Of a DNA stretch of 64,000 nt, positions 1 to 21,061 are shown in pieces. The stretch is from Holophagales bacterium. GTDB taxonomy: Bacteria; Acidobacteriota; Thermoanaerobaculia; Multivoradales; Multivoraceae. The notes beneath the pieces are model-generated. The model made no database searches and was not told the DNA's origin. It was given only the letters and a program-made list of their open reading frames with translations. Where the stretch lies: contig VXZQ01000001.1 in assembly GCA_009845425.1 (NCBI GenBank), positions 194,363-258,362 on the forward strand. The letters are read 5' to 3'. Positions within the stretch are counted from its first letter, which is position 1. Each line of letters opens with the position of its first letter. The position numbers were made by a program, and so were the translations under genes.

Positions 1-1962
1 TGGCAGGGCTTCCGCGACGGCCGCTCGGACATCCTCGCCCGCCGCCATGACGGTTCGCGCTGGTCGGCCGAGGAGACCGTCTCGACCTCGCCCGCCAACG
101 ACTGGACACCAGCGGTCGCGGCGTGCAGCGACGGTTCCGTCCACGTCGCCTGGGACACCTACGACCAGGGCAACTACGACGTGCTGATGCGGCGCTTCGA
201 GGGCGGCGCCTGGGGCGATGTCGCGCCGGTCGCCGACACCCCGAAGTTCGAGGCTCACGTCTCGGTCGCCTGCGACCGCCGCAACCGGCTCTGGGCGGCC
301 TGGAACGAGAGCGGTTTCCAGTGGGGCAAGGACTCGGGCTTCGAGATCTACAAGGAGGCGACCCGCCTCTACGAATGGCGCACCCTCGCCGTGGCGGTGT
401 GGGACGGCGTCCGCTGGCAGGTGCCCGAAGTCGACGTGAACGAGCTGCTCGAACGGGAGCTCCCCGAGTACATCCCGGGATTCAACGACCTGCCGGTGCT
501 CCGGGTCGACGCCGGCGGGCGGATGTGGCTCTTCTTCCGCCACCGCACGATCCGAGCCCGCGACACGCCGGACTTCACGCCGGCCCACCGGGCCGCCTGG
601 CAGATCTTCGGCACCGCCTACGTCGGCGGCGAATGGACCCGGCCGCTCCACCTGCCGTTCAGCCGCGGCCGCCAGGACGTGCGCTGGGAGCTGGCCTCGG
701 ACGGCCGCGGCAACCTGTTCGCGGCCTGGCCGACGGACAACCGGGACTCCGAGGAGTACCTCTTCGAACACTCCTCGATCAACGCGGCGAAGCTGCCGGC
801 GCTGACCGGCGAGGCCACGCCGCCCCGGCTCGTCGACCCGGACATCCGCGAGTACCACACCTATCCGGTCCATCCCAACGAAGCCGAGGATGTCGCCCGT
901 ATCCGTGCCTACACGATCGAGTCCGAAGGCCGCACTTACCGCATCTACCGCGGCGACACCCACCGCCACACCGAGTTCTCGCACGACGGCCTGAACGACG
1001 GCTCGTTGATGGAGGCTTACCGCTACGCCCTGGACGCCGCCGAACTCGACTTCCTCGGCGTCAGCGAGCACAACAACCGCGGCGGCCAGGACATCGAGTA
1101 CGTCAACTGGCTGCACCCGCAGATCGCCGACATCTTCCGCCTGCCGGGGAGCTTCGTGCCGGTCTACACCTACGAACGCAGCATCAGCTATCCGGACGGC
1201 CACCGGAACATCCTCTCGTCCAGGCGCGGCATCCCGACCCTGGAGATCACGGAGGCCGAACGACGGCACGAGGAGGGCGCGGCGCGGCTGTTCGCGTACC
1301 TCCGGGAGCACGACGCGATCTCGATCCCCCACACCTCGGCAACCGGCATGGGGACCGACTGGCGCGACAACGACCCCGAGGTGGAACCTCTCGTCGAGAT
1401 CTACCAGGGCGACCGGACTTCAGCCGAGTACGAGGGCGCTCCCCGGGCCGCCACCCGCGAGAAACCGATCGGCCAGCAGGGCGGCTTCCAGCCCGCCGGT
1501 TTCGTCTGGAACGCCTGGGCGAAGGGCTACAAGCTCGGCGTGCAGGCCGCGTCTGACCACATCTCGACCCACATCTCCTACGCCGCCACCATCGCCGAGG
1601 ACTTCACCGCCGGAGGCCTGCTCGACGCGATGAAGCAGCGGCACTCCTACGCCGCGACGGACAACATCATCCTCGACTACCGGATGCGCGCGAACGGCCG
1701 GGAGTACCTGCAGGGCGACATCGCCGAGGTCTCGGGGCGATTCGAGCTGGTCGTCAAGGTGATCGGCACCGCCCGCATCGAGCAGATCGACATCATCCGC
1801 GACCAGACCTTCCTCTACAACCGCCAGAACCTCGACCAGGAAGTGGACCTGACCTTCGTCGACAGCGACGTCGAGCCCGGCGAGCACTACTACTATGTGC
1901 GGGTGATCCAGAAGAACCGGGAGATCGCCTGGTCGTCGCCGATCTGGGTGACGGTCGAGTAG
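1..1962 (+). CDS. DUF3604-family (PHP-like metal-dependent phosphoesterase fold) protein with N-terminal BNR/sialidase-like repeats; 5' end lies outside the window
   Basis: Frame 1 is open from nt 1 and is the same frame as the listed ORF 181..1962. The translation has BNR-like S-x-D-x-G-x-W repeats (SxDGSVHVAWD), His-rich metal-site motifs (GDTHRHTEFSHDG, GVSEHNN) and the C-terminal '...EIAWSSPIWV' signature. That signature is shared with the C-terminus of the DUF3604 domain in the gene at 27545..31012 (EMAWTSPIWY). TAG stop at 1960-1962. Confidence 0.7.
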   Translation, partial: WQGFRDGRSDILARRHDGSRWSAEETVSTSPANDWTPAVAACSDGSVHVAWDTYDQGNYDVLMRRFEGGAWGDVAPVADTPKFEAHVSVACDRRNRLWAAWNESGFQWGKDSGFEIYKEATRLYEWRTLAVAVWDGVRWQVPEVDVNELLERELPEYIPGFNDLPVLRVDAGGRMWLFFRHRTIRARDTPDFTPAHRAAWQIFGTAYVGGEWTRPLHLPFSRGRQDVRWELASDGRGNLFAAWPTDNRDSEEYLFEHSSINAAKLPALTGEATPPRLVDPDIREYHTYPVHPNEAEDVARIRAYTIESEGRTYRIYRGDTHRHTEFSHDGLNDGSLMEAYRYALDAAELDFLGVSEHNNRGGQDIEYVNWLHPQIADIFRLPGSFVPVYTYERSISYPDGHRNILSSRRGIPTLEITEAERRHEEGAARLFAYLREHDAISIPHTSATGMGTDWRDNDPEVEPLVEIYQGDRTSAEYEGAPRAATREKPIGQQGGFQPAGFVWNAWAKGYKLGVQAASDHISTHISYAATIAEDFTAGGLLDAMKQRHSYAATDNIILDYRMRANGREYLQGDIAEVSGRFELVVKVIGTARIEQIDIIRDQTFLYNRQNLDQEVDLTFVDSDVEPGEHYYYVRVIQKNREIAWSSPIWVTVE

Positions 1963-1965
1963 CGG

Positions 1966-2721
1966 ATGGACGCAGTCTGGGTCCTGGTTTCGGCCGCGGT
2001 CGGCATCGGCTTCGTCCACACGCTGATCGGCATCGACCACACGCTGCCGTTCGTCGTCCTCGGCAAGGCGCGCGGATGGTCGTTGCGCCGAACGCTCTGG
2101 GTCACCGGACTGTGCGGAGGTGGGCACGTGGCCTCGTCGGTTCTGCTCGGCGGCGCCGGCATCGGGCTGGCCATCTTCGCGACCGGGCTGGACCTCCAGG
2201 AAGGGCACCACTGGATGGAGGGCCGCGTCGGCGTCTTCGAATCGATCGAGGCGGTCCGCGGCGACCTGGCGGCGTGGGCGCTCGTCCTGTTCGGTCTGTT
2301 GTACGCGGCGTGGTCCATGGCGCGCAGACGCCGGCAGCAGCGGCACGTCCACGAGCACGCCGGCGGGGTCGTCCATGCCCACGAGCATCCGGCGGCCGGC
2401 AGCCATCGCCACGCTCCCGGCGAAACCGTCGGCATTACCGGTCTCACCGCCTGGAGCCTGTTCGTCATCTTCGTGCTCGGGCCCTGCGAGCCGCTAATTC
2501 CGATCCTCATGGTGCCGGCCTTCCAGGTCGGCCTGTGGGCGGTGGTTCCGGTGACGCTGGCGTTCGCCGTGACGACGATCGCGACGATGGCTGGCGTCGT
2601 GGCGCTCGCCTACCGGGGCCTCGACTTCGTGCGGTTCCCCCGGCTACGGGCGCACGCGCACGCGCTCAGCGGGCTCGCGATCGCGAGTTCGGGCCTCGCC
2701 ATCCTGCTGTTCGCGGTCTAG
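1966..2721 (+). CDS. putative Ni/Co/Zn-type metal efflux permease (RcnA/NicO-like) with His-rich central loop
   Basis: ATG starts 4 nt after the upstream stop. The protein is polytopic: about six hydrophobic helices, split by a cytoplasmic loop RQQRHVHEHAGGVVHAHEHPAAGSHRHAPGE, with an HTLIGIDH motif in helix 1. This architecture is typical of RcnA-like Ni/Co efflux proteins, but the family assignment is an inference. Confidence 0.5.
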   Translation: MDAVWVLVSAAVGIGFVHTLIGIDHTLPFVVLGKARGWSLRRTLWVTGLCGGGHVASSVLLGGAGIGLAIFATGLDLQEGHHWMEGRVGVFESIEAVRGDLAAWALVLFGLLYAAWSMARRRRQQRHVHEHAGGVVHAHEHPAAGSHRHAPGETVGITGLTAWSLFVIFVLGPCEPLIPILMVPAFQVGLWAVVPVTLAFAVTTIATMAGVVALAYRGLDFVRFPRLRAHAHALSGLAIASSGLAILLFAV

Positions 2722-2734
2722 GACGCGCCGTCTA

Positions 2735-5700
2735 ATGGGCGCACACTTCCACGACGACGGGCACGGCCACTCGCACGGCCACGGGCTGCTGCAGCGGATC
2801 GGCTACATCGCGCTGTGCGTCGCGGTCGGCGTCCTGCTCCTGCTGTACCTGCTCGGGGTCGTCCGCACGGTCGCCGGCATCGACCTGGCGCTCATCCTCA
2901 CCCTGGTCGCCGGCTATCCGCTCATCCGCCACGCGATCCTGGACCTGCTCCAGGGACACTTCTCGTCGCACCTGACGATCGCGATCGCGGCCGGCGCGGC
3001 GGTGTGGATCGGCGAGTACTTCGCCGCCGCCGAGGTCATGTTCATCATGCTGATCGGCGAGGGGATCGAGCACTGGACGGTGGACCGCGCCAAGGGCGCG
3101 ATCGCCGGCTTCGTCGCCAGCCAGCCCGAGCAGGCGCGGGTGCTGCGCGACGGCACCGGGGAAACCGCGGAACTCGTGGCGCTCGGCGAGGTCGAGATCG
3201 GGGACCTGGTGCGGGTGCTCGCCGGCGAGCGCGTGCCGGTGGACGGGATGATCGAGCGCGGCGAGTCGTCCGTCGACCAGAGCAGCGTCACCGGCGAACC
3301 GTTGCCGGCGCAGCTCGGCGTCGGCGACGCGGTGTGGAGCGGCAGCCTGAACGAGTACGGCGTCCTCGACATCCGCTCCGAGCGGACCGGCAGCGACACG
3401 ACCGTCGCCCGGATCGCGAGTCTGATCGAGGACGCGCAGAGTCGCCGCGCCCGGGTCGTGCGTACTGCGGACAAACTGGCCCGGTTCTTCCTCCCCGCGG
3501 TGCTGGTCGCGGCCGGCGGGATCTACCTCTTCACCGGCGAGATGATGCGCACGGTGGCGGCGCTGATCGTGGCCTGTCCCTGCGCCCTAGTGCTGGCCAC
3601 GCCGGCGGCCATGGCTTCCGCGATCGCCCGGCTGGCCCGCGAGGGCGCGCTGGTCAAGGGCGGCGACGTGATCGAGTCGCTGTCGCGCATCGACGCCTGC
3701 GTGCTGGACAAGACGGGTACCCTCACCTGCGGGCGCCCCGCGCTGACCGCGATCGCGCCCGTCGGCGGCATGGCAGAGGATCGCCTGCTTCGAGCCGCCG
3801 CGAGCGCCGAGCTGACTTCCGAGCACCTGCTCGGCCGGGCCCTGGTCACCGAGGCCCGGGAGCGGCAGCTAGACCTTTCCGAGCCCGAGAACTTCAGGCT
3901 CCATCCGGGCCGCGGCGTGACGGCCACCGTCGATGGGCACGAGATCGCAGTGGGCAACCAGGCCTTGCTGGCGGAGGTCGTCGGCGAGGACGGGATGGAC
4001 GCCGTGGCCGCGAGCCTCGTGCCCACACCCGGCAGCGGCGAAACGCGGCTGGCCGTCGCCGTCGACGGCGCGCTGGCCGGCGCGCTCGCCCTTGCCGACC
4101 CGCTCCGCGATGAAGCGACCGAAGCGGTCGCCGACCTGCGTCAGGCCGGGGTCGATCCGATCGTCATGCTGACCGGCGACGCCGAGGGAACGGCGCGCAC
4201 GATCGGCCGCCGGGCCGGCATCGACCAGGTCCAGGCGGAACTGCTGCCCGAAGACAAGGTAGGCCGGCTCGGTGAGCTCTCCCGCGGCGACCGCAACGTC
4301 CTGATGGTCGGCGACGGGATCAACGACGCGCCGTCGCTCGCCGCTGCTTCCGTCGGCGTCGCGATCGGGCACGGCGCCGCCGACCTCTCGGCGGAAGCGG
4401 CCCAGGTCGTCCTGCTGCCCGACCGGCTCGACTACCTGGCGCCGCTGCTCCGCTACGCCCGCCGGGTCGTCGCCCGGATCCGGAGCAGCATCCTGATCTT
4501 CGCCTTCGGCATCAACTTCGTCGCCGTCGGCTTCGCCGCCTTCGGCTGGCTGCCTCCAGCCGCGGCGGCGATCGTCCACCAGGCCGCGTCGCTGCTCGTC
4601 ATCCTGAACTGCGTCCGCCTTCTCTACGAGGGACGGGCGGTGGCCGCGCGCGAAGACCGGGGCTTCGGCCGCTTCCGCATGCTGGCCGGTCCCGTCGACG
4701 GGCTGGTCGCCGCCTGGAAGGCGTTCAACGCCGGCCGCCGCGCGACGGTTCATCGCCTCGAACACGCGCTCGAGGACAGTCCCGCCCGCATCCGGTCGGC
4801 GGCCCCCCGGCTGCTGCGGGCGGCGCCGTTCGCGCTCGCCGCGATCTGGGCCGCGAGCGGCCTGCGCATGATCGATCCCCAGGAAGTGGGACTCGTCCAG
4901 CGCTTCGGCCAGCACCTCGGCGGCGAACTCGGCCCGGGCCTGCACCTGCGCTGGCCGTGGCCTGTCGATCGGGTGATTCGGGTCGAACCGGACCGCCTGC
5001 GGATGGCGGCAGTCGGCTCGCCGCGAGGAGCCGCTCCCGGCGAGGCCGGCGCAGAGCCGAGCTACGAGTGGAACGTGCGCCACGCCGGCTTCGACGAGAC
5101 GCCGCCGCTCGAACGCCTGATGCTGACCGGCGACGAGAACCTGGTCGAGGTCGCGGCCCGGATCCACTACCGGGTCGCCGACACCGCCGCATTCGCCTTC
5201 GCCGCGGCCGATCCCGCGCGACTGGTCGAAACGAGCGCCGAGCGGTCGCTGCGCACCGTGCTCGCCGGCCACTCGCTCGACGACGTGCTGACCGGCCAGC
5301 GCGACGGCATCGAGAAGGCCTGGCACACGCATCTCGCGGCGCTGCTCGAGAGCCTCGGCGCCGGCGTCGAGGTGGTGAACGCGACGGTTCAGGACGCCCA
5401 CCCGCCGCTCGACGTGGTCGACGCGTTCCGCGACGCGGCGAGCGCGCTCGAGGAGCGGGAGACCCTGATCGACGAGGCGGAAGGCTACGCGCTCGAGCGC
5501 CTGCCGATTGCCCGCGGCGAGGCCCGCCGGCAGCTCCTCGAAGCCGAGGCCTATCAGACCCGGCGCGTGGAGGCCGGCCGCGGCGAGAGCGAACGTTTCG
5601 CAATGCGCGCCGGAGCGTACCGACGCGCGAACGACCTGCACCGGTTCCGGCTCCAGCTTCAGACGATCGAAGATTCGCTTGCCGGCAAACCGAAACTGAT

Positions 5701-5815
5701 CACCGACGCGACCGGCGGCCGCAAGCGCTTCGTCTTCGTCGACGAAACGCCGGACCGCCTTCTCGATGTCTTCGTTCCTCCACCGGGTCCGGCCCAGAAC
5801 GAGGTTGACCAATGA
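2735..5815 (+). CDS. P1B-type heavy-metal translocating ATPase fused in frame to a C-terminal HflK-like SPFH (band-7) domain; His-rich N-terminus
   Basis: N-terminus MGAHFHDDGHGHSHGHG. The ATPase part has the CPC transmembrane motif (ACPCAL), DKTGTLT phosphorylation site, TGD and GDGINDAP motifs and a final TM helix. With no stop codon, the frame continues through a new TM helix (LLRAAPFALAAIWAASGL) into an SPFH domain with HflK hallmarks (LTGDENLVEV..., AFRDAASALEERETLIDEAEGYALERLPIARGEA...). Total length 1026 aa. Its TGA overlaps the next ATG (ATGA). Confidence 0.8.
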   Translation: MGAHFHDDGHGHSHGHGLLQRIGYIALCVAVGVLLLLYLLGVVRTVAGIDLALILTLVAGYPLIRHAILDLLQGHFSSHLTIAIAAGAAVWIGEYFAAAEVMFIMLIGEGIEHWTVDRAKGAIAGFVASQPEQARVLRDGTGETAELVALGEVEIGDLVRVLAGERVPVDGMIERGESSVDQSSVTGEPLPAQLGVGDAVWSGSLNEYGVLDIRSERTGSDTTVARIASLIEDAQSRRARVVRTADKLARFFLPAVLVAAGGIYLFTGEMMRTVAALIVACPCALVLATPAAMASAIARLAREGALVKGGDVIESLSRIDACVLDKTGTLTCGRPALTAIAPVGGMAEDRLLRAAASAELTSEHLLGRALVTEARERQLDLSEPENFRLHPGRGVTATVDGHEIAVGNQALLAEVVGEDGMDAVAASLVPTPGSGETRLAVAVDGALAGALALADPLRDEATEAVADLRQAGVDPIVMLTGDAEGTARTIGRRAGIDQVQAELLPEDKVGRLGELSRGDRNVLMVGDGINDAPSLAAASVGVAIGHGAADLSAEAAQVVLLPDRLDYLAPLLRYARRVVARIRSSILIFAFGINFVAVGFAAFGWLPPAAAAIVHQAASLLVILNCVRLLYEGRAVAAREDRGFGRFRMLAGPVDGLVAAWKAFNAGRRATVHRLEHALEDSPARIRSAAPRLLRAAPFALAAIWAASGLRMIDPQEVGLVQRFGQHLGGELGPGLHLRWPWPVDRVIRVEPDRLRMAAVGSPRGAAPGEAGAEPSYEWNVRHAGFDETPPLERLMLTGDENLVEVAARIHYRVADTAAFAFAAADPARLVETSAERSLRTVLAGHSLDDVLTGQRDGIEKAWHTHLAALLESLGAGVEVVNATVQDAHPPLDVVDAFRDAASALEERETLIDEAEGYALERLPIARGEARRQLLEAEAYQTRRVEAGRGESERFAMRAGAYRRANDLHRFRLQLQTIEDSLAGKPKLITDATGGRKRFVFVDETPDRLLDVFVPPPGPAQNEVDQ

Positions 5816-6783
5816 CCGATCACGACCATCATCAACACCACGACCACCACGGTCACCACCACGACGACGTGCACCGGCATGACGGCGGCGACGGGCACGA
5901 GCACTCGCCGCGCCGTGCCACGTCCTGGTGGCGCGCCGGCCTGGCCTTGCTGGCGATCGTTGCGCTGGCCCGGTCCGTCTTCGTCGTGCCGGAGACCGAA
6001 AGCGCGATCGTCACCCGCTTCGGCAAGCCGGTCCGAACCATCGAGAGTTCGGGACTCAAGCTGAAGTGGCCGATCGACCGGCGGCTTCGTTTCGACAACC
6101 GGGTGCTTCTCTACGATCCCGCCCCGGCCGAGTTCCTGACCCAGGACAAGAAGAACCTGGTCGTCGACACCGCGGTCGTCTGGCGGATTGCCGACCCGGC
6201 GCGGTTCCTGGAGACGATCGGCGACATCTCGGGCGCCGAGATGCGGCTTCACGACGTGGTCTGGGCCGGCCTCGCGGCCGCGCTCGGCCGCACGGAACTC
6301 TCGCAGCTCGTCTCCACGAAGCCGAAGCATCTCCGCATCGAGGAGGTCTCGGCCGAGGTCCGCGAGTCGGCGGTCGCCGTCTCCCTCCCCCAGCTCGGGG
6401 TCGAAATCCTCGAAGTCCAGCTCACCCGCCTGAGCTTCCCGGAGCAGAACCTCGAGTCCGTCTTCGCCCGCATGCGGGCGGAGCGCGAACGGATCGCGAA
6501 GGAGTACCGGGCCCAAGGCGAGGAACAGGCGATGATCATTCGCGCCGAGGCCGACCGGGACCGGGAGTTGATCCTGGCCGGCGCCTACCGTGAGGCCGAG
6601 ATCCTCCGCGGCCAGGGCGACGCCGAGGCGGCCGGCATCTACGGCGACGCCTACCGGCAGGACCCTTCCCTCTACCGCTTCCTGCGTACTCTCGAGTCCT
6701 ACGAGTCGATCCTCGACGACCAGACGACGGTCATCCTGTCGGCGGACTCGGAACTCTTCTCGCTGCTGGGCGGCTCCGAATGA
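5812..6783 (+). CDS. hflC: HflC-like SPFH-domain membrane protein with His-rich N-terminal tail
   Basis: N-terminus MTDHDHHQHHDHHGHHHDDVHRHDGGDGHEH, then a TM helix. The rest gives a strong HflC-like alignment by eye (VFVVPETESAIVTRFGK, LTQDKKNLVVDTAVVWRI, RMRAERERIAKEYRAQGEEQA...RGQGDAEAAGIYGDAYRQDPSLYRFLRTLESYES). ATGA overlap at both ends. Confidence 0.8.
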   Translation: MTDHDHHQHHDHHGHHHDDVHRHDGGDGHEHSPRRATSWWRAGLALLAIVALARSVFVVPETESAIVTRFGKPVRTIESSGLKLKWPIDRRLRFDNRVLLYDPAPAEFLTQDKKNLVVDTAVVWRIADPARFLETIGDISGAEMRLHDVVWAGLAAALGRTELSQLVSTKPKHLRIEEVSAEVRESAVAVSLPQLGVEILEVQLTRLSFPEQNLESVFARMRAERERIAKEYRAQGEEQAMIIRAEADRDRELILAGAYREAEILRGQGDAEAAGIYGDAYRQDPSLYRFLRTLESYESILDDQTTVILSADSELFSLLGGSE

Positions 6784-7712
6784 GGCGTCGCGCTATCCCG
6801 GCCGCGGCGCTGACCCTGGCGCTCATGTGGCTGGTCTGGGGCGTCTACTTCGTCGCCCCGGACGAGGAGGCGGTGACCCGCGTCCTGGGCAAGGCGCGCC
6901 CGACCGCGGCGGGGCCTGGCCTGCACTGGAACTGGCCGCGGCCCGTCGGCCGGGTGGACAAGCTGAAGGTGCGCGAAGCCAAGCGGCTGACGCTCGGCTT
7001 CGCGGCGGCCGACCGGGTGCTCGGCGGCGACGCGACGCCGGCCGAGGCGCGCTGGTTGACCGGCGACCGCAACGTCGTCCATGTGCGGCTCGTCGTCCTG
7101 TACGCGATCCACGATCCGCTCGCCTACTCGCTGCGCTTCGCCGGCGTCGAGTCGCTGCTCGAGACCAGCGGGCGCAGCGCGCTGCTCCGGGTGGTCGCCG
7201 GCATGGGTGTCGACGAACTGCTGACGACCGGCAAGGTGGCCGTGCAGCAAAGCGTCCAGGCCGCTTCGCAGGAGCTGTTCGATCGGTTCGGGACCGGCGT
7301 CACCGTCCTTTCCGCGAGTCTCGAAGGCGTCAGCCCGCCGAGTCTCGTCCGGGAGGCATTCAACGACGTCGCCAGCGCTCGCGAGGACCGCGACCGCCTG
7401 ATCCGCGAGGCGGAGAGCTACCGCAACGAGGTCGTACCGGTCGCGCGCGGCGAGGCGCGCGCCCTCGTCGCCGGGGCCGAGAGCTTCCGAACCGCCGAAG
7501 TCGAGCGCGCGACCGGCGAAGCCGACCGGTTCCGCTCGATCGCGAACGCCGACCAGGGGGCGCGCGCCGAGATCCGCACACGCACCTATCTCGAGACGAT
7601 GGAGCGGGTCCTGCCCCGCATGCGGAAGACGATCCTTGAACCCGGTCAGAGCACGATCGACATCGACTTCCTCCGCCGCGAGCTGACGACCGGGTCGAAC
7701 GGCCAACCGTGA
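6780..7712 (+). CDS. hflK: HflK-like SPFH-domain membrane protein (second HflK paralog in the operon)
   Basis: N-terminal TM helix, then LTGDRNVVHVRLVVLYAI... and AFNDVASAREDRDRLIREAESYRNEVVPVARGEA, which matches the HflK signature region. ATG overlaps the upstream TGA. Confidence 0.8.
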   Translation: MRRRAIPAAALTLALMWLVWGVYFVAPDEEAVTRVLGKARPTAAGPGLHWNWPRPVGRVDKLKVREAKRLTLGFAAADRVLGGDATPAEARWLTGDRNVVHVRLVVLYAIHDPLAYSLRFAGVESLLETSGRSALLRVVAGMGVDELLTTGKVAVQQSVQAASQELFDRFGTGVTVLSASLEGVSPPSLVREAFNDVASAREDRDRLIREAESYRNEVVPVARGEARALVAGAESFRTAEVERATGEADRFRSIANADQGARAEIRTRTYLETMERVLPRMRKTILEPGQSTIDIDFLRRELTTGSNGQP

Positions 7713-8188
7713 GGTTAAGCCGCAACCTCGGCGCGACCGCGCTGACCGTCGTGGTGCTCGCGGCCGGACTCGCCGTGGCGCTGCGCGACCGCCTGCCGGA
7801 GCGCGCCACGGATGCGGGTGATCCGAGCGACGTGTTCTGGGAGATGGTCGACGTCAGCCGCGAGGGCTCGACGGATGCCTATCTCGATCTCTTCGCCGGC
7901 GAGGTGCGCGAGCGACTGGAGACGGTACGCGACGAGATGGGCGAGGCCGCGTTCCAGCAGTATCTCCGCCAGCGGATCGCCGACCTCAAGGGGGTCGCCG
8001 TGACCGGCAGTGAAGATCTGGGCGGCACCGTGCGTCTCGAGGTCGAGTACGTCCGCGAGGCGAGCTACGAGACACAGAGCCTCGACCTGCGGGTCTCCCG
8101 CGGGCAGTGGCGCATCGTCGCCCTCGGACCGACGCACGAGCGCGAACCGCCGGTTCCCTACGGCACGCCGGTCGGCCCCGGCGACTGA
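7709..8188 (+). CDS. hypothetical membrane-anchored/secreted protein, last gene of the metal/SPFH operon
   Basis: ATGA overlap with the hflK-like stop. N-terminal hydrophobic segment ATALTVVVLAAGLAVAL. Codon usage is consistent with neighbouring genes. No recognisable domain. Confidence 0.45.
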   Translation: MRLSRNLGATALTVVVLAAGLAVALRDRLPERATDAGDPSDVFWEMVDVSREGSTDAYLDLFAGEVRERLETVRDEMGEAAFQQYLRQRIADLKGVAVTGSEDLGGTVRLEVEYVREASYETQSLDLRVSRGQWRIVALGPTHEREPPVPYGTPVGPGD

Positions 8189-8206
8189 CGGCGGGAGAAA
8201 GAAACG

Positions 8207-9400
8207 ATGAGAAAGCTCGTCATCGCTCTTCTCGGGCTCTTTCGCCGGATCTCGCTGGCGGTCCGAAAGCTCCGCGGCCAGTCCGAGGACGATGTCGCGG
8301 CGCAACGGGTCACGAGCGGCCGCGCCTGGGACGAGTTCTGCGACACGCTGAAGGCCGCCGGTGCATCGCTGAACTTCCCGGGAACTCCCCGTGACTCCTT
8401 CAACCAGGCCGAAGGCTACCGCTACCTGAGCCGGCTGACGCGGGCTGGTCTGATGGCCTTCGTCGAGCACGCGGACCCGCGCGCGCCCGTGCTGCACCGG
8501 GTCGCGAACGAGACGGTCAAGCTCGGCTCCGACAACCCGGACAACCACTACCTGACGGCCGCGCTCTCCGGCGCCTACGAGTACCGGATCACCGGACGCC
8601 GGAACACCGTCGCCTACCTGGGCTTCGGCACCCAGGCCGGCCACTACGGCGAGGGCGGCGGCCTGCCGCCGACCGGCTACATCGAGGCCGCGGAACTCGA
8701 GATGGACGACGACGGCCAGTTCGAACTCGTCCTCGGTTGCGAGCAGCAGGAAGGCAACTGGCTGCCGATGAAGCCCGACACGGGAATGCTCATCGTGCGC
8801 CAGACCTTCCTCGACCGGCGCACCGAGATCCCGGCCGAACTGCACATCGAGCGGATCAACTGCGCTCCCGAGGAGAAGCGCCCCGCGCCCCTGACGCCGA
8901 CTCAGGTCGACGTGGGGCTGCGCTCGGCGAGCACCCTGGTCGCCGGCGCCTCGCTGCTGTTCGCGAAGTGGGCGCGCGACTTCCAGAAGCACTCGAACAG
9001 GCTGCCCCGCTTCGACCAGGAGACGTCGAACCAGGCCGGCGGCGACCCGAACATCGCCTACTACCACTCGCACTGGCGACTCGCCGGGGACGAGGCGCTG
9101 GTCATCGAGGCCACACCGCCCGAGTGCGAACACTGGAACTTCCAGCTCAACAACTACTGGATGGAGTCGCTCGACTACCGCTACCACACGATCCACACGA
9201 ACAAGCACCTGGCGCAGTACGAGCCTGACGGCTCGGTGCGCCTGATCGTGGCCCACGAGGATCCGGGGCTGCCGAACTGGCTCGACACCGCCGGGCACAC
9301 CTCCGGCACGATGTGCTTCCGCTGGATCCGCGCCGAGGCGCACCCGGAGCCCGGGACGCGGGTCGTCAAGCTGGCCGAACTCTCGGCACTACGCCGCTGA
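8207..9400 (+). CDS. hypothetical protein (possibly DUF1214/DUF1254-like)
   Basis: 397-aa ORF with an RBS-like gggagaaag upstream. Balanced composition, not Arg/Ala artifact-like. Family guess only. Confidence 0.55.
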   Translation: MRKLVIALLGLFRRISLAVRKLRGQSEDDVAAQRVTSGRAWDEFCDTLKAAGASLNFPGTPRDSFNQAEGYRYLSRLTRAGLMAFVEHADPRAPVLHRVANETVKLGSDNPDNHYLTAALSGAYEYRITGRRNTVAYLGFGTQAGHYGEGGGLPPTGYIEAAELEMDDDGQFELVLGCEQQEGNWLPMKPDTGMLIVRQTFLDRRTEIPAELHIERINCAPEEKRPAPLTPTQVDVGLRSASTLVAGASLLFAKWARDFQKHSNRLPRFDQETSNQAGGDPNIAYYHSHWRLAGDEALVIEATPPECEHWNFQLNNYWMESLDYRYHTIHTNKHLAQYEPDGSVRLIVAHEDPGLPNWLDTAGHTSGTMCFRWIRAEAHPEPGTRVVKLAELSALRR

Positions 9401-9404
9401 CCCG

Positions 9405-10664
9405 ATGGCGAAGCGGGTTGCCGAAACGCCGACGGACTACGAGCGGCCGTACCGGCCGCTTCCGGTCGCGCTGCTGAACGCGGCCGGGCGGGCCGCACGC
9501 CACGTCGGCGCAAGCGGGAGGCTCGACGTCGACAGGATGGTCGCGAAGGCCCAGAGAAGAACCGGTCTGTCCAGCTTCGGCGACGAGTGGTTCATGGAAC
9601 CCCTGTCCGTCCTCGTCCGCTCGATCAACGAGGAGGCCGACCTCACGCTCCTGGGCCGGCTGATCCAGCGGCGGCGAATCGAGGGAGCGCTGGTTACCCG
9701 TCTGCGCGTCGAGGAACTCCTCCGCCGCCGGCCGAAGATCTGCAACATCGACCTCGGCCGGATCGTCGTGATCGCCGGCCTGCAGCGGACCGGCACGACC
9801 ACCCTGCATCGGCTGATCGCCTCCCACCCCGAGATGCGCGCCGTCGAGGCGTGGGAGGGACTGAATCCCCTGCCCCTGCCTCGCGAAGAGCCGGGCGATC
9901 CTCACACCCGGATCCGACGGGCGCTCATCGCGGAGAAAGCCGTCGCCTATCTCGCCCCCGCCTTCTTCGCCGTTCATCCCGCCGAACACGACGCTCCGGA
10001 GGAGGACGTGCTGCTGCTCGACGTGGCCTTCATGAGTCAGTCGGCGGAAGCGACCATGCACGTACCTGCCTACGCCCGCTGGCTGGAAGGCCAGGACCAC
10101 ACGCGCGCGTACGAAGAGTTCCGCACCCTGCTTCAGGTCCTGCACTGGCAACGGCCGCGGAGTCACTGGGTGCTCAAGACGCCGCACCACATGGAGTACC
10201 TCGACGTCCTCCTCGAGGTCTTTCCGGCAGCCACGGTCGTCCGGACACACCGCGATCCGCTGAAGACGATTCCCTCCTTCTGCAGCATGGTCGCCCACGG
10301 CCGCGGCCTGTTCAGCGACCGGGTCGACCCGAAGGAGATCGGCGCGCACTGGTTCGCCAAGACCTGCCGGCTGGTCGAACTGACCGCCCGCGTTCGGGAA
10401 GCCGCGGACCCGAGCCGCTTCGTCGACGTCTCCTACTACGACCTGGTCGACAATCCGATGGCGGTGCTGGGCAAGGTCTACCAACGGGCCGGCATTCCCT
10501 TCGGACCAGACGCGATGAAAGCCGCCGAGCGGACCGCGAGCCGCAACGTGCAGCACCGCTACGGGCGGCATGTCTACGAACCGGAGAGCTTCGGCCTGAG
10601 CCGGGAAGTGATCGAGCACGGAATGGCGGCCTACCGGAAGCGGCACTCCATTCCCCGTGAGTAA
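9405..10664 (+). CDS. sulfotransferase family protein
   Basis: P-loop-like 5'-PSB motif GLQRTGTTTLHRL and a downstream RxxxS-type 3'-PB region (VVRTHRDP), typical of PAPS-dependent sulfotransferases. Confidence 0.75.
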   Translation: MAKRVAETPTDYERPYRPLPVALLNAAGRAARHVGASGRLDVDRMVAKAQRRTGLSSFGDEWFMEPLSVLVRSINEEADLTLLGRLIQRRRIEGALVTRLRVEELLRRRPKICNIDLGRIVVIAGLQRTGTTTLHRLIASHPEMRAVEAWEGLNPLPLPREEPGDPHTRIRRALIAEKAVAYLAPAFFAVHPAEHDAPEEDVLLLDVAFMSQSAEATMHVPAYARWLEGQDHTRAYEEFRTLLQVLHWQRPRSHWVLKTPHHMEYLDVLLEVFPAATVVRTHRDPLKTIPSFCSMVAHGRGLFSDRVDPKEIGAHWFAKTCRLVELTARVREAADPSRFVDVSYYDLVDNPMAVLGKVYQRAGIPFGPDAMKAAERTASRNVQHRYGRHVYEPESFGLSREVIEHGMAAYRKRHSIPRE

Positions 10665-10677
10665 GCTGACGAGCCGC

Positions 10678-11655
10678 ATGAAGAAGCTCTTCAAGGTGCT
10701 CCGCAAGGCGGTCCGGGACCGGGCGGCCGAGCGGCCGGAGATCGAGCCTCTGCCGGCTTCCGTTCGGATCGACGGCAGGACCTGCCTGGTTACCGGAGCC
10801 AACAGCGGCGTCGGCAAGGCCGTCGCCATCGACCTGGCCAGACGCGGCGGCCACGTCCTGATGGCCTGCAGGAGCGGGCACCCGGAGGCCGGTGAAGAGG
10901 TACGGGCCGCCTCCGGTTCCGACCGGGTCGAGATGCTGCGTGTCGACCTTTCCGACATGCGCTCGGTGCATCGGCTCTGCGACGAGCTGCGCGACCGGCG
11001 AACGGTTCTCGACATCGCGGTCCTCAACGCCGGCCTCATGCCGCGCCGCGCCCGCCGCACGCCGCAGGGATTCGAGACGATGTTCGCCGTCCACTTCCTG
11101 GCCAACCGTGTCCTGGTCGACCGCTGGCTGACGGACGGAACGGTTCGCCCGGCGGGCCGGATCGAGGAAGCGCCCCGCATTGTCATTGTCTCCTCCGACG
11201 CCCACCGCTCCGCCGAGGCGATCGACTTCGACCGCTTCGGCGAGTTCACGGACTACGGCGTCCGGGACGGGATCAGGCACTACGGCGCGAGCAAGCTCGT
11301 CCTCTGCACCTACGCGACCGAGCTCTCGCGCCGCCTGAACCGCGACGGCGAGGGCCATGTCGTGGTCCACTCGCTCTGCCCCGGCCCCGTCAACACCGCC
11401 ATCGCGCGGGAAGCCCCGTGGTTCCTGAAGCCCCTGGTGGTCCCGATGATGAGGTTCTTCTTCCTGACGCCGGAGAAGGCCGCCAGGCCCGTCAGCTACC
11501 TGTGCTGCGCCGACGACGCCGGCAAGCGGACCGGCATCTACCTGCACATGCTGCGCGAGAAGCGCCCGTCCGAGCACGCCACCGAACCGGCCAACGGCGC
11601 CCGGCTATGGCAGGCCAGCGCGGCGCTGCTCAAGGCGCAGGCGCCGCCGAGCTGA
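10678..11655 (+). CDS. SDR-family oxidoreductase
   Basis: TGANSGVGKA Rossmann motif (TGxxxGxG) and a NAG motif (VLNAGLM). Alternative GTG start at 10657 overlaps the sulfotransferase stop. Confidence 0.75.
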   Translation: MKKLFKVLRKAVRDRAAERPEIEPLPASVRIDGRTCLVTGANSGVGKAVAIDLARRGGHVLMACRSGHPEAGEEVRAASGSDRVEMLRVDLSDMRSVHRLCDELRDRRTVLDIAVLNAGLMPRRARRTPQGFETMFAVHFLANRVLVDRWLTDGTVRPAGRIEEAPRIVIVSSDAHRSAEAIDFDRFGEFTDYGVRDGIRHYGASKLVLCTYATELSRRLNRDGEGHVVVHSLCPGPVNTAIAREAPWFLKPLVVPMMRFFFLTPEKAARPVSYLCCADDAGKRTGIYLHMLREKRPSEHATEPANGARLWQASAALLKAQAPPS

Positions 11656-11750
11656 CGCCCGTGGCCTACCGACCCGGATCCGGTATCTCGAAGGCCTTCC
11701 ACCACATGTGGGAGCTCTGCTCGCCGAAGCCGGTGGCCGAACGGGTCGAC

Positions 11751-12659
11751 ATGTCGGGCAGGAAGGTGATCGTCACCGGCGCGACGCCCGGGTCGATCGG
11801 CTACCAGGTCGCCAGAACGCTCGCCGCCTGGGGCGCCGACGTGACGGTCACCTGCCCTCGCGACAGCGACGCCGCCAGGGAGGCCCTGTTCCGGGATCTG
11901 CGGGACGCCGGGCGGCAACCGCACGGAATCGAGGCCCACCGGCTCGATCTCGCCGACGCCGGAAGCGTCGCCGATTTCGCCGCCTGGTACAGGGAGACCT
12001 CCGGCGGCCGCCTGGACGTGCTGATCAACAACGCCGGCATCCTCCGCGACGTGCTCTGGCGCTGGCGCGAGCAAAGGCTCTCCGCCGACGGGTTCGAGAT
12101 CCACTGGCGAACGAACTACCTCGGCACCTTCCACCTGACCCGCCTGCTGCTGCCGATGCTCCTCGAGTCCGGCCGGCGGAGCGGCGACGCCCGCGTGGTC
12201 AACGTCTCCTCGCACCAGCACGACAAGGGCAGCAACGACCGCTTCTTCGCGCCCCCGGACAGGCTCGACTCCTGGACCGCCTATGGCCAGTCCAAGCTGG
12301 CCCTGATCCACCACGCGTTCGCGTTGCAGCGCCGCTACGGCGCGGACGGCAACCTCCGATCGGCCGCCCTGCATCCGGGTTCCGCCTACTCGAACATGAC
12401 GTTCGGTTGGCAGGACGAACCCCTTTGGCTCAGGCGGACCAAGCGCCTGTTCACGCCGCTGGCGCCGCTGATCCTCCTGACGCCGAACCAGGCCGCGCAG
12501 ACGACGATCCACTGCGCCACGGATCCTCATCTGGAGGGCGGCCACTACCACGAACGCTGCGCCAAGGCCGAGCCCATCCCTGACGCCCGGGACGAAGCCG
12601 CGTCGCGACGCCTCTGGGAAGAGACGGACCGCTGGGTCCGGTCGCTCGGCCAGGAGTAG
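11751..12659 (+). CDS. SDR-family oxidoreductase
   Basis: MSGRKVIVTGATPGSIG glycine-rich motif, NNAG, and a YxxxK catalytic pair (YGQSK). The listed ORF start at 11418 overlaps the previous gene by more than 230 nt and is rejected. ATG at 11751 (or 11706) fits. Confidence 0.75.
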   Translation: MSGRKVIVTGATPGSIGYQVARTLAAWGADVTVTCPRDSDAAREALFRDLRDAGRQPHGIEAHRLDLADAGSVADFAAWYRETSGGRLDVLINNAGILRDVLWRWREQRLSADGFEIHWRTNYLGTFHLTRLLLPMLLESGRRSGDARVVNVSSHQHDKGSNDRFFAPPDRLDSWTAYGQSKLALIHHAFALQRRYGADGNLRSAALHPGSAYSNMTFGWQDEPLWLRRTKRLFTPLAPLILLTPNQAAQTTIHCATDPHLEGGHYHERCAKAEPIPDARDEAASRRLWEETDRWVRSLGQE

Positions 12660-12677
12660 CGGCGCAGGAGGCCCCCG

Positions 12678-13151
12678 ATGTTCAAGCACTCCATCGATTC
12701 AGAGCCGGTAGAGATCGACGCCCCGATCAAAGTGGCCTGGGACCTCCTCGTCGACCTCGACCGGTACCACGAATGGAACCCCTTCGCCCGGACCTACAGG
12801 AAGACCGATGTACGCGTCGGCTCCACGATCCACTTCGACGTCAAGCTCGACCGCTACAACCGGAAGCAGACCGAGCGCCTCGCGATCATCGAGCCGCCGA
12901 CTCGACTGGCCTGGAGCACGAACGTCGCCCTTGGCCTCGTCAAGGCGCTCCGCGTCCAGCGGCTTGAGAAGCGAAGCGAGACGAGTTGCACCTACTTCAA
13001 CACCGACACCCTCGAAGGCCCCCTAGCACCCGTGGCCCGCCTCCTGTTCGGCGGCGCCATGCACCGCGGCTTCGCGGCCGTCGGCAGGGCGCTCAAGCAG
13101 ACCGCGGAGGAACGGCACGGAGACCGGAGCCCAGATGAAGCATCGCCTTAG
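12678..13151 (+). CDS. SRPBCC (polyketide-cyclase/Bet v1-like) family protein
   Basis: About 157 aa. AGGAGG RBS 6 nt upstream. The [17 protein letters not shown] start is typical of SRPBCC/START-like small proteins. Confidence 0.6.
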
Positions 13152-15471
13152 CCGACGAGGCTTGCTCGGATTCCTGGCCGCGGTCGTTTCCCTGCCGAAG
13201 CGGATCGGACGGGCGGAGGCGGGGCAGCAGGAACATGACCAAGTGTCTGGCACCCGCGTCGACCGGTGGCACCGGACCCACGATCGAGTCTGGCTCGGGG
13301 AGCGGTTCTGGGCCAATCCGATGGAGGACTGGCGAGTTGTGGACGGTGCCGCGGAAGTGCAGACCTCCGGCGGCGATCGCAACGTCCACCTGATCACGCA
13401 TCGGTTGACCGGCGAGCGGGGGCGGTTTCGGATGTCGGTCCGCTGCAAGCGTGTCGAAGTTGGTGAGCGGGACGGCGGCGCGGGGTTCCGGATCGGTATC
13501 CGCAACCGCATCGATGACCATCGCAGCAACTGCTTCGCGCGCGGCGTCGGGGTCGACGCGGGGCTGATCGACGGGCGGCTGTTGCTCGGTATGGCGAGCA
13601 GCGACATCGACGGGGGTGATGCCGTTGTGAGCGACGGGGTCGTCGTGGTTCTCGACGGTGTTACGGCTTCCAACAGGTGTGTGCTCCTGCTCAGAGCTCT
13701 TGCCTCCGACGGAACCGAACTGGGCAGAGCTTCAAACATCATCTCGACGGCCGAGATCGAGGGAAACGTCGCAATCGTCAGCAACTTCGACCGCGAGATC
13801 CCGAAGGGCGAGGGTGCCCGGTACCGGTTCAGCGAGTGGACGGTGGACGGGGACGCCTTCGAGTTCGACGAGGACTACCGGTTCGGGCCGATCCTGTGGT
13901 CGATGTACTCGATGAGCGACTCCCGCTCTGACGAGGGGTTCGTCGTCAAGATGACGGCGCTGCTGCCGCCGCTGGGCGCCGACGACGACCGGCGGGTCGA
14001 GCTGCTGACGGAGCGGGACGGGAAATGGCGGTCCCACGGCTTCGCCGAACTCGACCCGGACGCCTGGACGGCGACCTTCCGCCTATCCAACTGGCACGAG
14101 CGTGTGGCGGCACCGTTTCGGCTCGTCTACCGCGAGCAGCACCCCGGCGGCGACGAGACGGAGCACGAATGGCGGGGAACGATCCGCCCGAATCCCGCAG
14201 GGCGGCCGGTGCGGCTGGCGGGCCTCACCTGCCAGAATGACTACTCGTTCCCCTACGCTCCGGTCGCGGACCACGTCCTGGCTCGCGACCCCGACCTGCT
14301 CTTCTTCTCGGGCGACCAGCTCTACGAGAACCACGGCGGCTACGGCCTGATCCGCGAGCCGGCCGAGCCCGCGATTCTCAACTACCTGCGCAAGTACTAC
14401 ATGTTCGGTTGGGCCTTCCGCGAAACGATGCGGGACCGCCCGACGTTATGTATTCCGGATGACCACGACGTGTTCCAGGGCAACATCTGGGGTGAGAGCG
14501 GCAAGGCGATGGACACCGGCCGGGGCACGTCCTCGCTCGGCGGCTACCGGGAGCCGGCGCGGATGGTCAACGTGGTCCACCGCACGAACGCCTCGCACCA
14601 CCCGGACCCGTTCGATCCGGCGCCGGTCGAGCAGGACATCAGTGTCTACTACGGCGACATGGTCTACGGCGGCGTGGGCTTCGCGATCCTCGCCGACCGC
14701 CAGTTCAAGAGCGGCCCGGAGCACGTGGACACCGGCTCCGGCCGGGCGGACCACGTGCTGGACGACAGTGTCGACACCTCGGCGCTCGACCGGCCAGGCC
14801 TCGCGCTGCTCGGGGAGCGGCAGGAAGCGTTCCTGGAAGAGTGGGCCGGCGACTGGCGGGGCCACACGATGAAAGTGCTGCTCAGCCAGACGGTGTTCGC
14901 CGGCGTCGCCACGCATCACGGTGGCCACGACGACTACCTGATCGCGGATCTCGACTGCGGCGGCTGGCCGCAGACACCGCGCAACCGCCTCGTCCGCATC
15001 CTGAGGAAGGCGAAGTGCCTGCACGTCTGCGGCGACCAGCACCTGCCGTCCCTCGTCCAGTACGGCGCGGACGCGCAGCGCGACGGTTGCTGGGCCTTCT
15101 GCACGCCAGCGATCAGCGCCGGCTACCCGCGCTGGTGGCGGCCCGACGAAGTGGGCACTCCGCACCAGAACCGGCCCCGGCACGGTCTGGCGCACACCGG
15201 CGAGTTCAGCGATCCCTTTGGCAACCACGTCTACGTCTACGCGGTCGGGAATCCGGAGGTCGGCACCGCGTCCGACCCCTACGAGCGGGCGCACCAGAAG
15301 AGCAGCGGCTTCGGCCTGGTCACGGTCGACACGGCGGCGAAGACCTACCGGATCGAGGCATTCCGCTTTCTGAGCACGGCCGACAGCGCGGACGGCGAGG
15401 ACGCCCAGTTCCCCGGCTGGCCGGTCACCCTGCACCAGGACGAGAACGCGGGCGAGAACCGGATCGGCTGA
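13135..15471 (+). CDS. PhoD-like phosphatase (metallophosphoesterase) with Tat signal peptide
   Basis: Twin-arginine signal [18 protein letters not shown]. Calcineurin-like/PhoD motifs [23 protein letters not shown] and CGDQH. Confidence 0.75.
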
Positions 15472-15474
15472 GGC

Positions 15475-20972: not shown

Positions 20973-20994
20973 GGTGTTTCTTCCTCCACCAATT

Positions 20995-21011: not shown

Positions 21012-21021
21012 TACACCCCTT

Positions 21022-21038: not shown

Positions 21039-21061
21039 CCGTCCCCCTGCCATAATCGCTC

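Follow-up and report, generated by a model that had tools for sequence, protein, structure and literature searches.

HflK and HflC of Escherichia coli are SPFH proteins with an N-terminal membrane anchor followed by a periplasmic SPFH domain and a coiled coil. The cages built by HflK/C enclose FtsH (PDB 7vhp, 7wi3, 9cz1). Encapsulation of membrane proteins has also been described for stomatin, which surrounds AQP1 and UT-B (PMC12407830), and studies of SPFH gene deletions have mostly ended without a phenotype. The present analysis concerns a stretch of 64,000 nucleotides (nt) from a Holophagales bacterium of the Acidobacteriota (assembly GCA_009845425.1, contig VXZQ01000001.1, positions 194,363 to 258,362 of the forward strand), referred to below as the window. 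Its G+C content is ~70%. Positions 2735 to 8188 of the window carry a four-gene module, in which a P1B-type heavy-metal ATPase is fused to an HflK-type protein and is followed by HflC-like, HflK-like and small NTF2-like genes. The module and the E. coli system have in common the K and C subunits with the same succession of anchor, periplasmic SPFH domain and coiled coil, at 29-33% identity; a cage around a membrane client is presumed for the module. Unlike the E. coli pair, the module encodes a K-C-K triple with one K fused to the P1B ATPase. A YEWNxxH insert, His-rich cytosolic tails and an NTF2-like fourth gene are peculiar to the module, which also lacks the hfq-hflX context.

Metal pumps gathered in membrane platforms are known from Actinobacteria. 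PacL proteins with the Zn-binding motif DLHDHDH cluster and stabilize P1B ATPases there (PMC9374683, PMC13043812). The motif of PacL1 binds Zn with a dissociation constant of ~6 uM and is needed only at high Zn. The PacL/CtpC effluxosome resembles the arrangement suggested for the module in that P1B pumps are held in membrane platforms together with operon-encoded single-pass partners bearing a His/Asp motif. It differs in that PacL is a small DUF1490 protein found in Actinobacteria only and is not an SPFH protein; its foci are flotillin-independent, its motif is C-terminal, and no fusion is involved. No module protein matches DUF1490 in Pfam, and the resemblance is functional or conceptual only.

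Another possible relative is found in Pseudomonas aeruginosa, where the PA2434-PA2439 region includes the P1B ATPase HmtA (PA2435), a small hypothetical gene and three HflK/HflC-family genes (PA2437-2439). Expression of the hmtA cluster goes up 5.6-14.4-fold in a znuA mutant, and Zn depletion increases the amounts of its proteins. Overexpression of HmtA raised cellular Zn and Cu; the protein has been called an importer, and reviews ask for confirmation of this. A 2026 survey of all nine P. aeruginosa SPFH genes described PaFlo5-7 (PA2437-2439) as one operon with a patchy, transfer-like distribution and no phenotype, leaving the pump unmentioned. Compared by description only, from the parts list given in these papers, the metal-regulated cluster shares with the module a P1B ATPase, a small gene and three SPFH genes, and differs in being unfused and in the reported import of Zn and Cu by HmtA. 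It is possibly an unfused analogue of the module.

The initial annotation suggested that the locus could be a new type of metal-resistance system. No published account of P-type ATPase::SPFH or CDF::SPFH fusions was found in the literature searched; relatives of the system, conceptual or architectural, exist, namely the PacL/CtpC effluxosomes, the hmtA cluster and the CDF::HflK fusions described below. The resistance part of the proposal is unproven; expression of the possibly analogous hmtA-PA2437-2439 cluster rises under zinc depletion.

The P1B-ATPase::HflK fusion and its partner genes

The four genes of the module are arranged as follows.

2735..5815, + strand: P1B-ATPase::HflK fusion of 1026 amino acids (aa); Pfam E1-E2_ATPase, Hydrolase (HAD) and Band_7; TIGR01525 and TIGR01933
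5812..6783, + strand: HflC-like SPFH protein of 323 aa; Pfam Band_7; TIGR01932
6780..7712, + strand: free HflK-like SPFH protein of 310 aa; Pfam Band_7; TIGR01933
7709..8188, + strand: small NTF2-like membrane-anchored protein of 159 aa with a GTG start, recognized with AlphaFold2 (AF2) and Foldseek

By their profile scores, all three SPFH parts belong to the HflK/HflC families. The fused HflK part reaches 175.9 bits and the free HflK 182.3 bits against the HflK model TIGR01933 (cut-off 159.4), and the HflC-like protein reaches 217.9 bits against TIGR01932 (cut-off 134.4). In BLASTP, the fused HflK is 29% identical to residues 95-357 of E. coli HflK over ~300 residues (E 2e-33), and the HflC-like protein is 33% identical to E. 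coli HflC (E 6e-51). A single hydrophobic segment lies at the N-terminus of HflC, of the free HflK and of the small protein; in the free HflK it is a membrane anchor at aa 8-26.

The genes overlap by four nucleotides at each junction. ATGA start/stop overlaps are found at 5812-5815 (fusion/HflC), where the HflC start lies in the preceding stop and has GAGG 8 nt 5' of it, and at 6780-6783 (HflC/free HflK). The third overlap, at 7709-7712 (free HflK/small protein), is GTGA. Thus the three consecutive ATGA overlaps listed in the initial annotation are three 4-nt overlaps, two of which are ATGA. Its open reading frame (ORF) coordinates from 1966 to 8188, a span that includes an accessory permease gene, and the 13-nt gap between this permease and the ATPase were confirmed from the sequence.

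The N-terminal part of the fusion is, according to its motifs and hidden Markov model scores, a P1B-type heavy-metal ATPase. It scores 530 bits against the heavy-metal ATPase model TIGR01525 (cut-off 346) and 443 bits against TIGR01512 (cut-off 313.5), with the ZntA 'exception' and equivalog models far under their cut-offs. Motifs were counted over 74 intact fusions and followed in an alignment of 13 fusion sequences (A1). The features of the fusion protein are given below.

2735..2785, + strand: His-rich cytosolic N-terminus of the ATPase, MGAHFHDDGHGHSHGHG, with 6 His in 17 residues, read from the sequence
2792..4624, + strand: P1B ATPase core, aa 20-630; best PDB match sCoaT 7qbz
aa 186-188 of the fusion: TGE of the A-domain, invariant in A1
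3575-3583, + strand: CPC in M4, aa 281-283, present in 74/74 intact fusions
3707-3721, + strand: DKTGT phosphorylation site, aa 325-329, invariant in A1
aa 526-533 of the fusion: GDGxNDxP hinge (GDGINDAP), invariant in A1
4514-4516, + strand: N594 in M5, invariant in A1
4577-4582, + strand: H615-Q616 in M6, invariant in A1
4625..4858, + strand: cytosolic linker (variable; aa 631-688) followed by the ninth hydrophobic segment (aa ~689-708, ...FALAAIWAASGL...), from A1
4856..5746, + strand: HflK-type SPFH and coiled-coil region, aa 708-1004, from the alignment to E. coli HflK
5027-5120, + strand: family-specific insert of ~30 residues with Y-E-W-N-x-x-H, aa ~765-795 (YEWN at nt 5063-5074)

The closest solved relative of the pump is sCoaT (PDB 7qbz), a P1B-4 exporter of Zn, Cd and Co, which is matched over residues 4-630 (E 2.5e-99). 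The likeness to pumps of the P1B-4 type (sCoaT, CzcP, CtpD, PfeT) covers the whole pump, including the MA/MB helices, the M6 His and the His-rich N-terminus, which aligns with that of sCoaT (HTPDDGHNHAHG against HFHDDGHGHSHG). This N-terminal run is longer in two orthologues (L001, L021) and is missing from the group with 42-45% identity. The differences from sCoaT are the change of SPC to CPC and of HEGST to HQAAS around the retained M6 His, the loss of the HP-motif Pro and the C-terminal HflK. Neither SPC in M4 nor HEGxT in M6, the marks of P1B-4, is found in the module pump, although sCoaT is its nearest structure. The marks of P1B-2 are CPC in M4, Lys in M5 and the Asp of DxG in M6; here the CPC is present, and comparison with a ZntA-type pump places N594 at the P1B-2 Lys and H615 at the P1B-2 Asp. 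The M6 signature HQxx[S/A] is retained in 71/74 intact fusions. In the SEHPL motif of the N-domain, the Pro is replaced by L, T, A or V in 13/13 A1 fusions (SEHLL, SEHTL, SEHAI), and the His (H364) is invariant. In the window the motif occupies aa 362-367 (SEHLLG, positions 3818-3835), where sCoaT has SDHPL; the Pro is otherwise highly conserved in P1B ATPases. When representative proteins were searched exhaustively with the pump domain as the query, the fusions came out on top, followed by unfused pumps with CPC and H(Q/N/E). The nearest of the unfused pumps are from Armatimonadota, Bathyarchaeota and Elusimicrobia, and no Pseudomonas was present among the named matches.

By homology with sCoaT, the pump is expected to have eight helices with both ends in the cytoplasm. 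In A1 the linker that follows varies in length and sequence, and the hydrophobic segment behind it keeps a constant position. The alignment with E. coli HflK begins directly past this ninth segment, at the 'SG' following the E. coli HflK anchor. From this starting point, the ninth helix is predicted to place the fused SPFH domain in the periplasm, as in canonical HflK. The insert of ~30 residues is absent from E. coli HflK, and its YEWN is found in 70/74 fusions; the YEWNxxH sequence could be a contact or ligand site of the fused HflK.

Distribution of the module and its CDF-linked counterpart

Homologues that share all three Pfam domains over their full length fall into >100 clusters (42-97% identity) and originate from Holophagales, Thermoanaerobaculia, Blastocatellia and other Acidobacteriota metagenome-assembled genomes (MAGs). 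One genome per GTDB species was scanned with the junction part of the fusion (M5/M6, linker and SPFH) as the query. This gave 414 relatives, of which the best 80 loci were examined; all of them belong to Acidobacteriota with the exception of three oddly labelled bins. Gene order was followed with phmmer in a survey of 84 related loci, whose fusion proteins are 33-97% identical. The window's clade ('Ca. Multivorans'/Thermoanaerobaculia) forms a group of 78-95% identity, and the fusions of Blastocatellia, Bryobacterales, Terriglobia and Acidobacteriaceae are at 33-47%.

The order fusion-HflC-HflK-small protein is found in nearly all of the 84 loci with enough sequence. Four distant loci (56, 50, 45 and 42% identity) each contain the fusion, a Band_7 protein of ~295 aa, another of ~306-343 aa and a small protein without a recognized domain, and their flanking genes all differ. 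Neighbouring genes lie within +/-20 nt of each other in 61/78, 67/75 and 59/65 cases at the first, second and third junction, respectively, and 4-nt overlaps occur 37 times at the second junction and 36 times at the third; these counts are upper estimates, since the choice of start codons favours short gaps. Judged from gene order and junctions, the conserved unit comprises four translationally coupled genes across Acidobacteriota. The fusion, with its >100 clusters, is ancient and not an artefact. The co-occurrence of HflC/HflK paralogues with P1B ATPases in other genomes, raised by the initial annotation, thus extends to fusion in nearly all 84 loci, and a metal transporter is linked to the homologous clusters to the same extent.

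In four loci of Bryobacterales/Solibacteraceae (L041, L043, L048, L051) the ATPase part is split into 2-3 ORFs, which are either frameshift pseudogenes or assembly errors. A full module of the acidobacterial type is also present in bins labelled Clostridia, Nevskia soli and Planctomycetota (L025, L068, L082). These are probably mis-binned acidobacterial contigs, with lateral transfer as a possible alternative. The ~1000-residue fusions are named 'FtsH protease activity modulator HflK' at NCBI and 'Cu+-exporting ATPase' or 'HflK protein' at JGI. The naming of pump fusions simply as HflK at NCBI is a systematic mis-annotation that should be flagged.

A second architecture of this kind came to light on a plasmid. 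The best PLSDB match to the HflC of the window lies on Aquibium oceanicum plasmid NZ_CP018172 (L085:5367-9012), where a 515-aa 'HflK' consists of Cation_efflux (CDF) and Band_7 domains. This CDF::HflK is preceded by a two-component system and is followed by HflC, a second HflK, a peptidyl-prolyl isomerase (PPIase), a ZntA-type pump with a His-rich N-terminus, PCuAC and SCO. The HflC of the Aquibium system has 986 relatives among 8000 candidates scored. Four neighbourhoods (L088-L091) from Rhizobium (sp. AN80A), two Chloroflexi and one metagenome have the order CDF::Band_7-Band_7-Band_7-rotamase in 4/4 cases, with a rotamase of 700-775 aa that is a periplasmic rotamase or chaperone. The hosts of CDF::HflK are Alphaproteobacteria and Chloroflexi (Anaerolineales and Caldilinea MAGs). 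Heavy-metal sensor kinases or two-component systems, YHS, SCO1, DsbA and ZntA-type genes and another CDF are often found beside the CDF modules.

In both versions the transporter has its two ends in the cytoplasm, and a single additional helix connects it to the HflK that comes first in a K-C-K triple. They differ in the transporter (CDF membrane domain versus ATPase), the fourth gene (large rotamase versus NTF2-like protein) and the host phyla. By its domain composition, CDF::HflK is an independent 'Rosetta-stone' case, with an unrelated class of transporter on the same kind of triple. Between the ATPase- and CDF-linked systems the C subunits share 44% identity, against 31-35% with canonical HflC. 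In the SPFH tree, each of the four K groups is monophyletic (99-100% bootstrap). The tree does not fix the order in which they branch, and for this reason a common ancestor of the ATPase- and CDF-linked triples is not firmly claimed. Plasmid-borne hflKC genes of Azospirillum, Ralstonia, Tistrella, Vibrio and Phaeobacter, considered as further examples, proved to be plain K-C pairs with no transporter neighbour (5/5) and hence serve as negative controls.

Histidine-rich tails, the small protein and neighbouring genes

The HflC of the window begins with a tail that opens MTDHDHHQHHDHH and is positioned as follows.

5812-5904, + strand: His/Asp-rich N-terminal tail of HflC, aa 1-31, with 14 His and 7 Asp
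5935-5991, + strand: single membrane anchor of HflC, aa 42-60, a hydrophobic segment

Residue 19 of E. coli HflC aligns to residue 55 here, and so ~35 N-terminal residues are extra, in agreement with the tail described in the initial annotation. The three His-rich stretches that it pointed to in the permease, the ATPase and the HflC are real. When all 297 six-frame ORFs of the window with at least 100 aa are ranked by their most His-dense 25 residues, HflC (12 His) comes first and the permease loop (8 His) second, at a background of 3.05% His. The His-rich stretches of the window are far above chance.

Among the 84 loci, a tail was counted when at least 5 His fell within 25 residues at the N-terminus. 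HflC carries such a tail in 26 loci, which include the window's clade (L005-L018) and, independently, many Bryobacterales, where in one example MHDHSHTHHHHG is found right past the start codon. The free HflK carries it in 7 loci (L002, L019, L021, L024, L027, L037, L040) and opens MGPDNSHHHDHPHHHHGHDESDRH in L002. On the ATPase it is found in 4 loci, including two chance or short matches, and the run in the window's clade is shorter. HflC is tailless in all four of the distant loci that have gene and domain tables. The proposal of a His-tailed SPFH protein is thus retained in part: His tails recur on SPFH subunits in independent lineages, but the HflC tail is not a defining feature, being missing in most Terriglobia-type loci.

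The tails appear to be accessory and not core. In this they match PacL1, whose Zn motif is needed only when zinc is high. The N-termini of the ATPase, HflC and free HflK are predicted to be cytoplasmic. The simplest account of the pattern would be selection for the presence of a His/Asp peptide at the cytoplasmic side of a common complex, irrespective of the subunit bearing it. Tails on different subunits in different lineages would be expected if the three N-termini share one face of one complex, and their movement between subunits is taken as indirect evidence for co-assembly.

The small protein has an anchor or signal at aa 7-25 and an NTF2-like domain at aa 40-145; its C-terminal P-Y-G motif is conserved. 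Its family consists of 440 'hypothetical' proteins, none of which has a Pfam domain. The AF2 model, built from a 37-sequence alignment, has a predicted local confidence (pLDDT) of >90 for residues 40-145 and contains the helices 40-52, 55-60, 64-77 and 79-91 and the strands 93-103, 108-116, 120-130 and 133-145. Foldseek matched it in the PDB to SgcJ, ketosteroid isomerase, NTF2-like and SnoaL proteins (E ~1e-4, TM-score up to 0.58). On the basis of this model, the protein belongs to the NTF2-like superfamily at the fold level, without a family-level match in sequence. Aromatic, aliphatic or acidic residues make up most of the invariant positions besides P-Y-G. Conserved Cys, His or Met residues are lacking, which makes a classical metallochaperone role unlikely.

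The genes around the module, all on the same strand, are listed here.

1..1962, + strand: 3' part of a cut metallohydrolase gene of the DUF3604/CehA-McbA type, PHP-like (Pfam DUF3604, NF038032); no stop in the frame back to nt 1, so that the gene continues past the left edge
1966..2721, + strand: accessory membrane protein (permease) of 251 aa with ~6 transmembrane segments, from the sequence; window's clade only
2344-2412, + strand: His-rich loop of the permease, HVHEHAGGVVHAHEHPAAGSHRH, aa 127-149, with 8 His
8207-9400, + strand: DUF1214 gene, 18 nt past the small-protein gene
9405-10664, + strand: sulfotransferase (Sulfotransfer_3), after a 4-nt gap from the DUF1214 gene

The permease has an H-x5-D-H motif in its first transmembrane segment and a G-P-C-E-P motif past the loop. 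An H-x5-D-H motif together with a His loop is a pattern typical of Ni/Co/Zn permeases. The designation 'RcnA-like' given to the protein in the initial annotation is not supported. No Pfam or NCBIfam match was obtained at E<=10, the RcnA/NicO family (PF03824) included; a single BLASTP comparison with E. coli RcnA gave E=0.096, and hhalign a probability of 3.8%. The weak, co-linear BLASTP match spans the His loop and the following G..PC helix and is a resemblance of layout only, both proteins having a transmembrane bundle before these two elements. A tblastn search of 72,556 PLSDB plasmids found no match to the permease either. The AF2 model built from its sequence alone (pLDDT 57.6, predicted TM-score 0.35) was set aside, its quality being insufficient for searching folds. 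Nor does the permease hold its place as a part of the module: it is a clade-specific addition, found only in the group of 78-95% identity (L005-L018).

The string of + strand genes is uninterrupted, and the DUF3604-like gene ends 3 nt before the permease. Of the limits set by the initial annotation, it holds that the ORFs from 1966 to 8188 are co-directional; the string itself reaches past both ends, to the DUF3604-like gene on the 5' side and DUF1214 on the 3' side. Outside the window's clade, a single locus (L035) has DUF1214 behind the module. Short-chain dehydrogenase ORFs lie further 3' with short gaps or overlaps, and the co-directional string on this side spans 8207-12659 (+). A scan of positions 1-14000 for promoters and terminators gave counts not above those of shuffled sequence and is therefore uninformative on the limits of the operon. 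Many exported hydrolase and redox genes occupy the rest of the window (13135-26572 and 42958-44376), among them a PhoD-like phosphatase, DUF5916, a pyrroloquinoline quinone dehydrogenase with a cytochrome c domain and a sulfatase, and two paralogues with FG-GAP repeats lie in tandem at 17803-20972 (- strand). No tRNA or Rfam family was found in the 64-kb window.

When the flanking ORFs of 70 diverse loci were clustered all against all, only the DUF3604-like family recurred across lineages. The other clusters represented lineage-specific synteny or antisense shadows, and no conserved regulator was found among these ORFs. Signal peptides are evident in the full-length DUF3604-like orthologues (~970-1008 aa), whose middle part is propeller-like. 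In 18/80 loci of the genome scan, 67 of which have at least 3 kb of upstream flank, the DUF3604-like gene lies on the same strand within 1.2 kb 5' of the fusion ORF. It is present anywhere in the locus in 29/80, including distant Bryobacteraceae and Terriglobia. The window has a second, full-length DUF3604 gene at 27545-31012 (- strand), which scores 520 bits against PF12228 and is fused to a beta-lactamase/transpeptidase-like domain. Evidently, DUF3604 paralogues are common in these genomes.

Possible modes of action of the module

The region probably encodes an SPFH-scaffolded platform for the export of a divalent metal, that is, a dedicated metal-pump complex. Given the fusion in nearly all 84 loci and the recurrent His tails of the SPFH proteins, the dedicated SPFH assembly around a metal transporter envisaged in the initial annotation is the most economical reading. 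At the level of sequence, nothing speaks more strongly for a physical partnership than a covalent fusion; the client it points to is a transition-metal pump, and it does so twice, with the unrelated P1B ATPase and CDF classes. In such a platform, the fused HflK, the free HflK and HflC would co-assemble into an alternating HflK/C-like ring. The free HflK would dilute the bulky pump-bearing subunit, leaving the ATPase at only some positions of the ring. The ring would fence or cage the pumps in one membrane microdomain, stabilizing and possibly regulating them. The cytoplasmic His/Asp tails would capture, buffer or sense metal, feeding or gating the pump; this antenna role is suggested by analogy with N-terminal metal-binding domains and with DLHDHDH of PacL1. 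The pump would export an ion of the Zn2+/Co2+/Ni2+ type to the periplasm, either for detoxification or for the supply of exported metalloenzymes. That the metal is a borderline divalent one, of the Zn, Co or Ni type, is suggested by the Cys2/His/Asn/Gln ligand set, the kinship with sCoaT and the His/Asp tails.

Several points weigh against the export platform. The metal, the direction of transport, complex formation, stoichiometry and cage geometry are all inferred. The invariant CPC...N...HQ signature lies outside every defined P1B subgroup, and so the metal specificity is not readable from it. With the HP-motif Pro gone in the whole family, the ATPase may show unusual kinetics. Many loci, many of them of the Terriglobia type, have no His tail at all, and metal buffering cannot then be the core function. 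By analogy, the expression of the unfused hmtA cluster under Zn depletion and the reported import by HmtA would point in the opposite direction. Finally, the tree leaves the common ancestor of the ATPase- and CDF-linked triples unsettled, with both common descent and convergence possible.

The recurrence of an exported DUF3604/PHP-type metallohydrolase beside the module suggests metal delivery as an alternative to detoxification. The SPFH cage would then roof the exit of the pump as a periplasmic metallation chamber, in which a high local metal concentration loads and folds exported apo-enzymes; the candidate clients or helpers are the DUF3604/PHP hydrolase, the NTF2-like protein and the PPIase of the CDF version. 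Some P1B ATPases do load periplasmic or secreted enzymes. A hydrolase with a signal peptide stands directly 5' of the fusion in the 18 loci and anywhere near it in the 29/80, distant lineages included, but ~60% of loci have no DUF3604 neighbour, and paralogues of this family are common in the genomes concerned. The fourth gene of the CDF version is a periplasmic rotamase or chaperone in all cases examined, and that of the module would, according to its model, provide a membrane-anchored periplasmic NTF2-like domain. However, the latter has no conserved Cys, His or Met for metal hand-over, and clients are not known to enter an HflK/C-type cage from the periplasm. The chamber is considered unlikely as the main role of the module.

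Acquisition of metal in the manner of HmtA appears quite unlikely. The ATPase would here import Zn (or Cu, Co) under limitation, the tails would receive the ion, and the SPFH ring would organize the uptake site. This is in line with the three SPFH genes and the small gene that flank hmtA, their induction by Zn depletion and the increase in cellular Zn and Cu upon HmtA overexpression, and with the H-x5-D-H motif and His loop of the permease in the window's clade. Import by a P1B ATPase, however, needs confirmation even for HmtA, and the likeness to hmtA is one of parts lists taken from papers. The nearest solved relative of the module pump is an exporter. In addition, a CusS-like sensor and the ZntA-type pump near the CDF version point to an excess of metal.

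Coupling to FtsH is very unlikely. It supposes a true HflK/C cage that also holds FtsH, with the fused pump, a potentially harmful transporter, under regulated proteolysis and conditional turnover. FtsH is the only well-established partner of HflK/C, and all three SPFH proteins exceed the NCBIfam HflK/HflC equivalog cut-offs. Unlike canonical hflK-hflC pairs, which have no transporter neighbours, the module has a K-C-K triple with a fused transporter and a family-specific 30-residue insert in the fused HflK, and its C subunits are nearer to the CDF-linked ones (44%) than to canonical HflC (31-35%). No FtsH gene was found in the four neighbourhoods with domain tables, although canonical hflKC is not beside ftsH either. 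It is hardly credible that there is no special coupling, with His stretches that are neutral low-complexity drift and a fusion that merely co-expresses independent functions: many loci have no tail, tail length and position vary, and high-GC genomes tolerate low-complexity extensions, but fusion, order and 4-nt overlaps are kept down to 33% identity, the His runs recur at no place other than the cytoplasmic N-termini of the three proteins and exceed all else in the window, and a CDF was independently fused to the same kind of triple.

It is conceivable, though doubtful, that HflK/HflC-type cages serve generally to house metal transporters and not FtsH alone. A pump tethered under a periplasmic SPFH dome would then serve a private compartment that metallates and folds exported apo-enzymes, with the His tails as a loading dock. 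If this were true, the periplasm would contain a compartment whose metal level is set by the pump, a P1B ATPase in Acidobacteriota and a CDF in Proteobacteria and Chloroflexi. For the unfused hmtA-PaFlo5-7 cluster of a tractable pathogen, the same mode of working becomes a testable question. The role of bacterial SPFH proteins beyond restraining FtsH is a long-standing question, and the fusion gives a direct handle on it. It implies that cages of the HflK/HflC type, so far familiar chiefly from their partnership with FtsH, can also form around metal transporters. The 'effluxosome' idea of metal pumps in membrane platforms would thereby be extended from Actinobacteria to Acidobacteriota, a very abundant phylum of soil bacteria.

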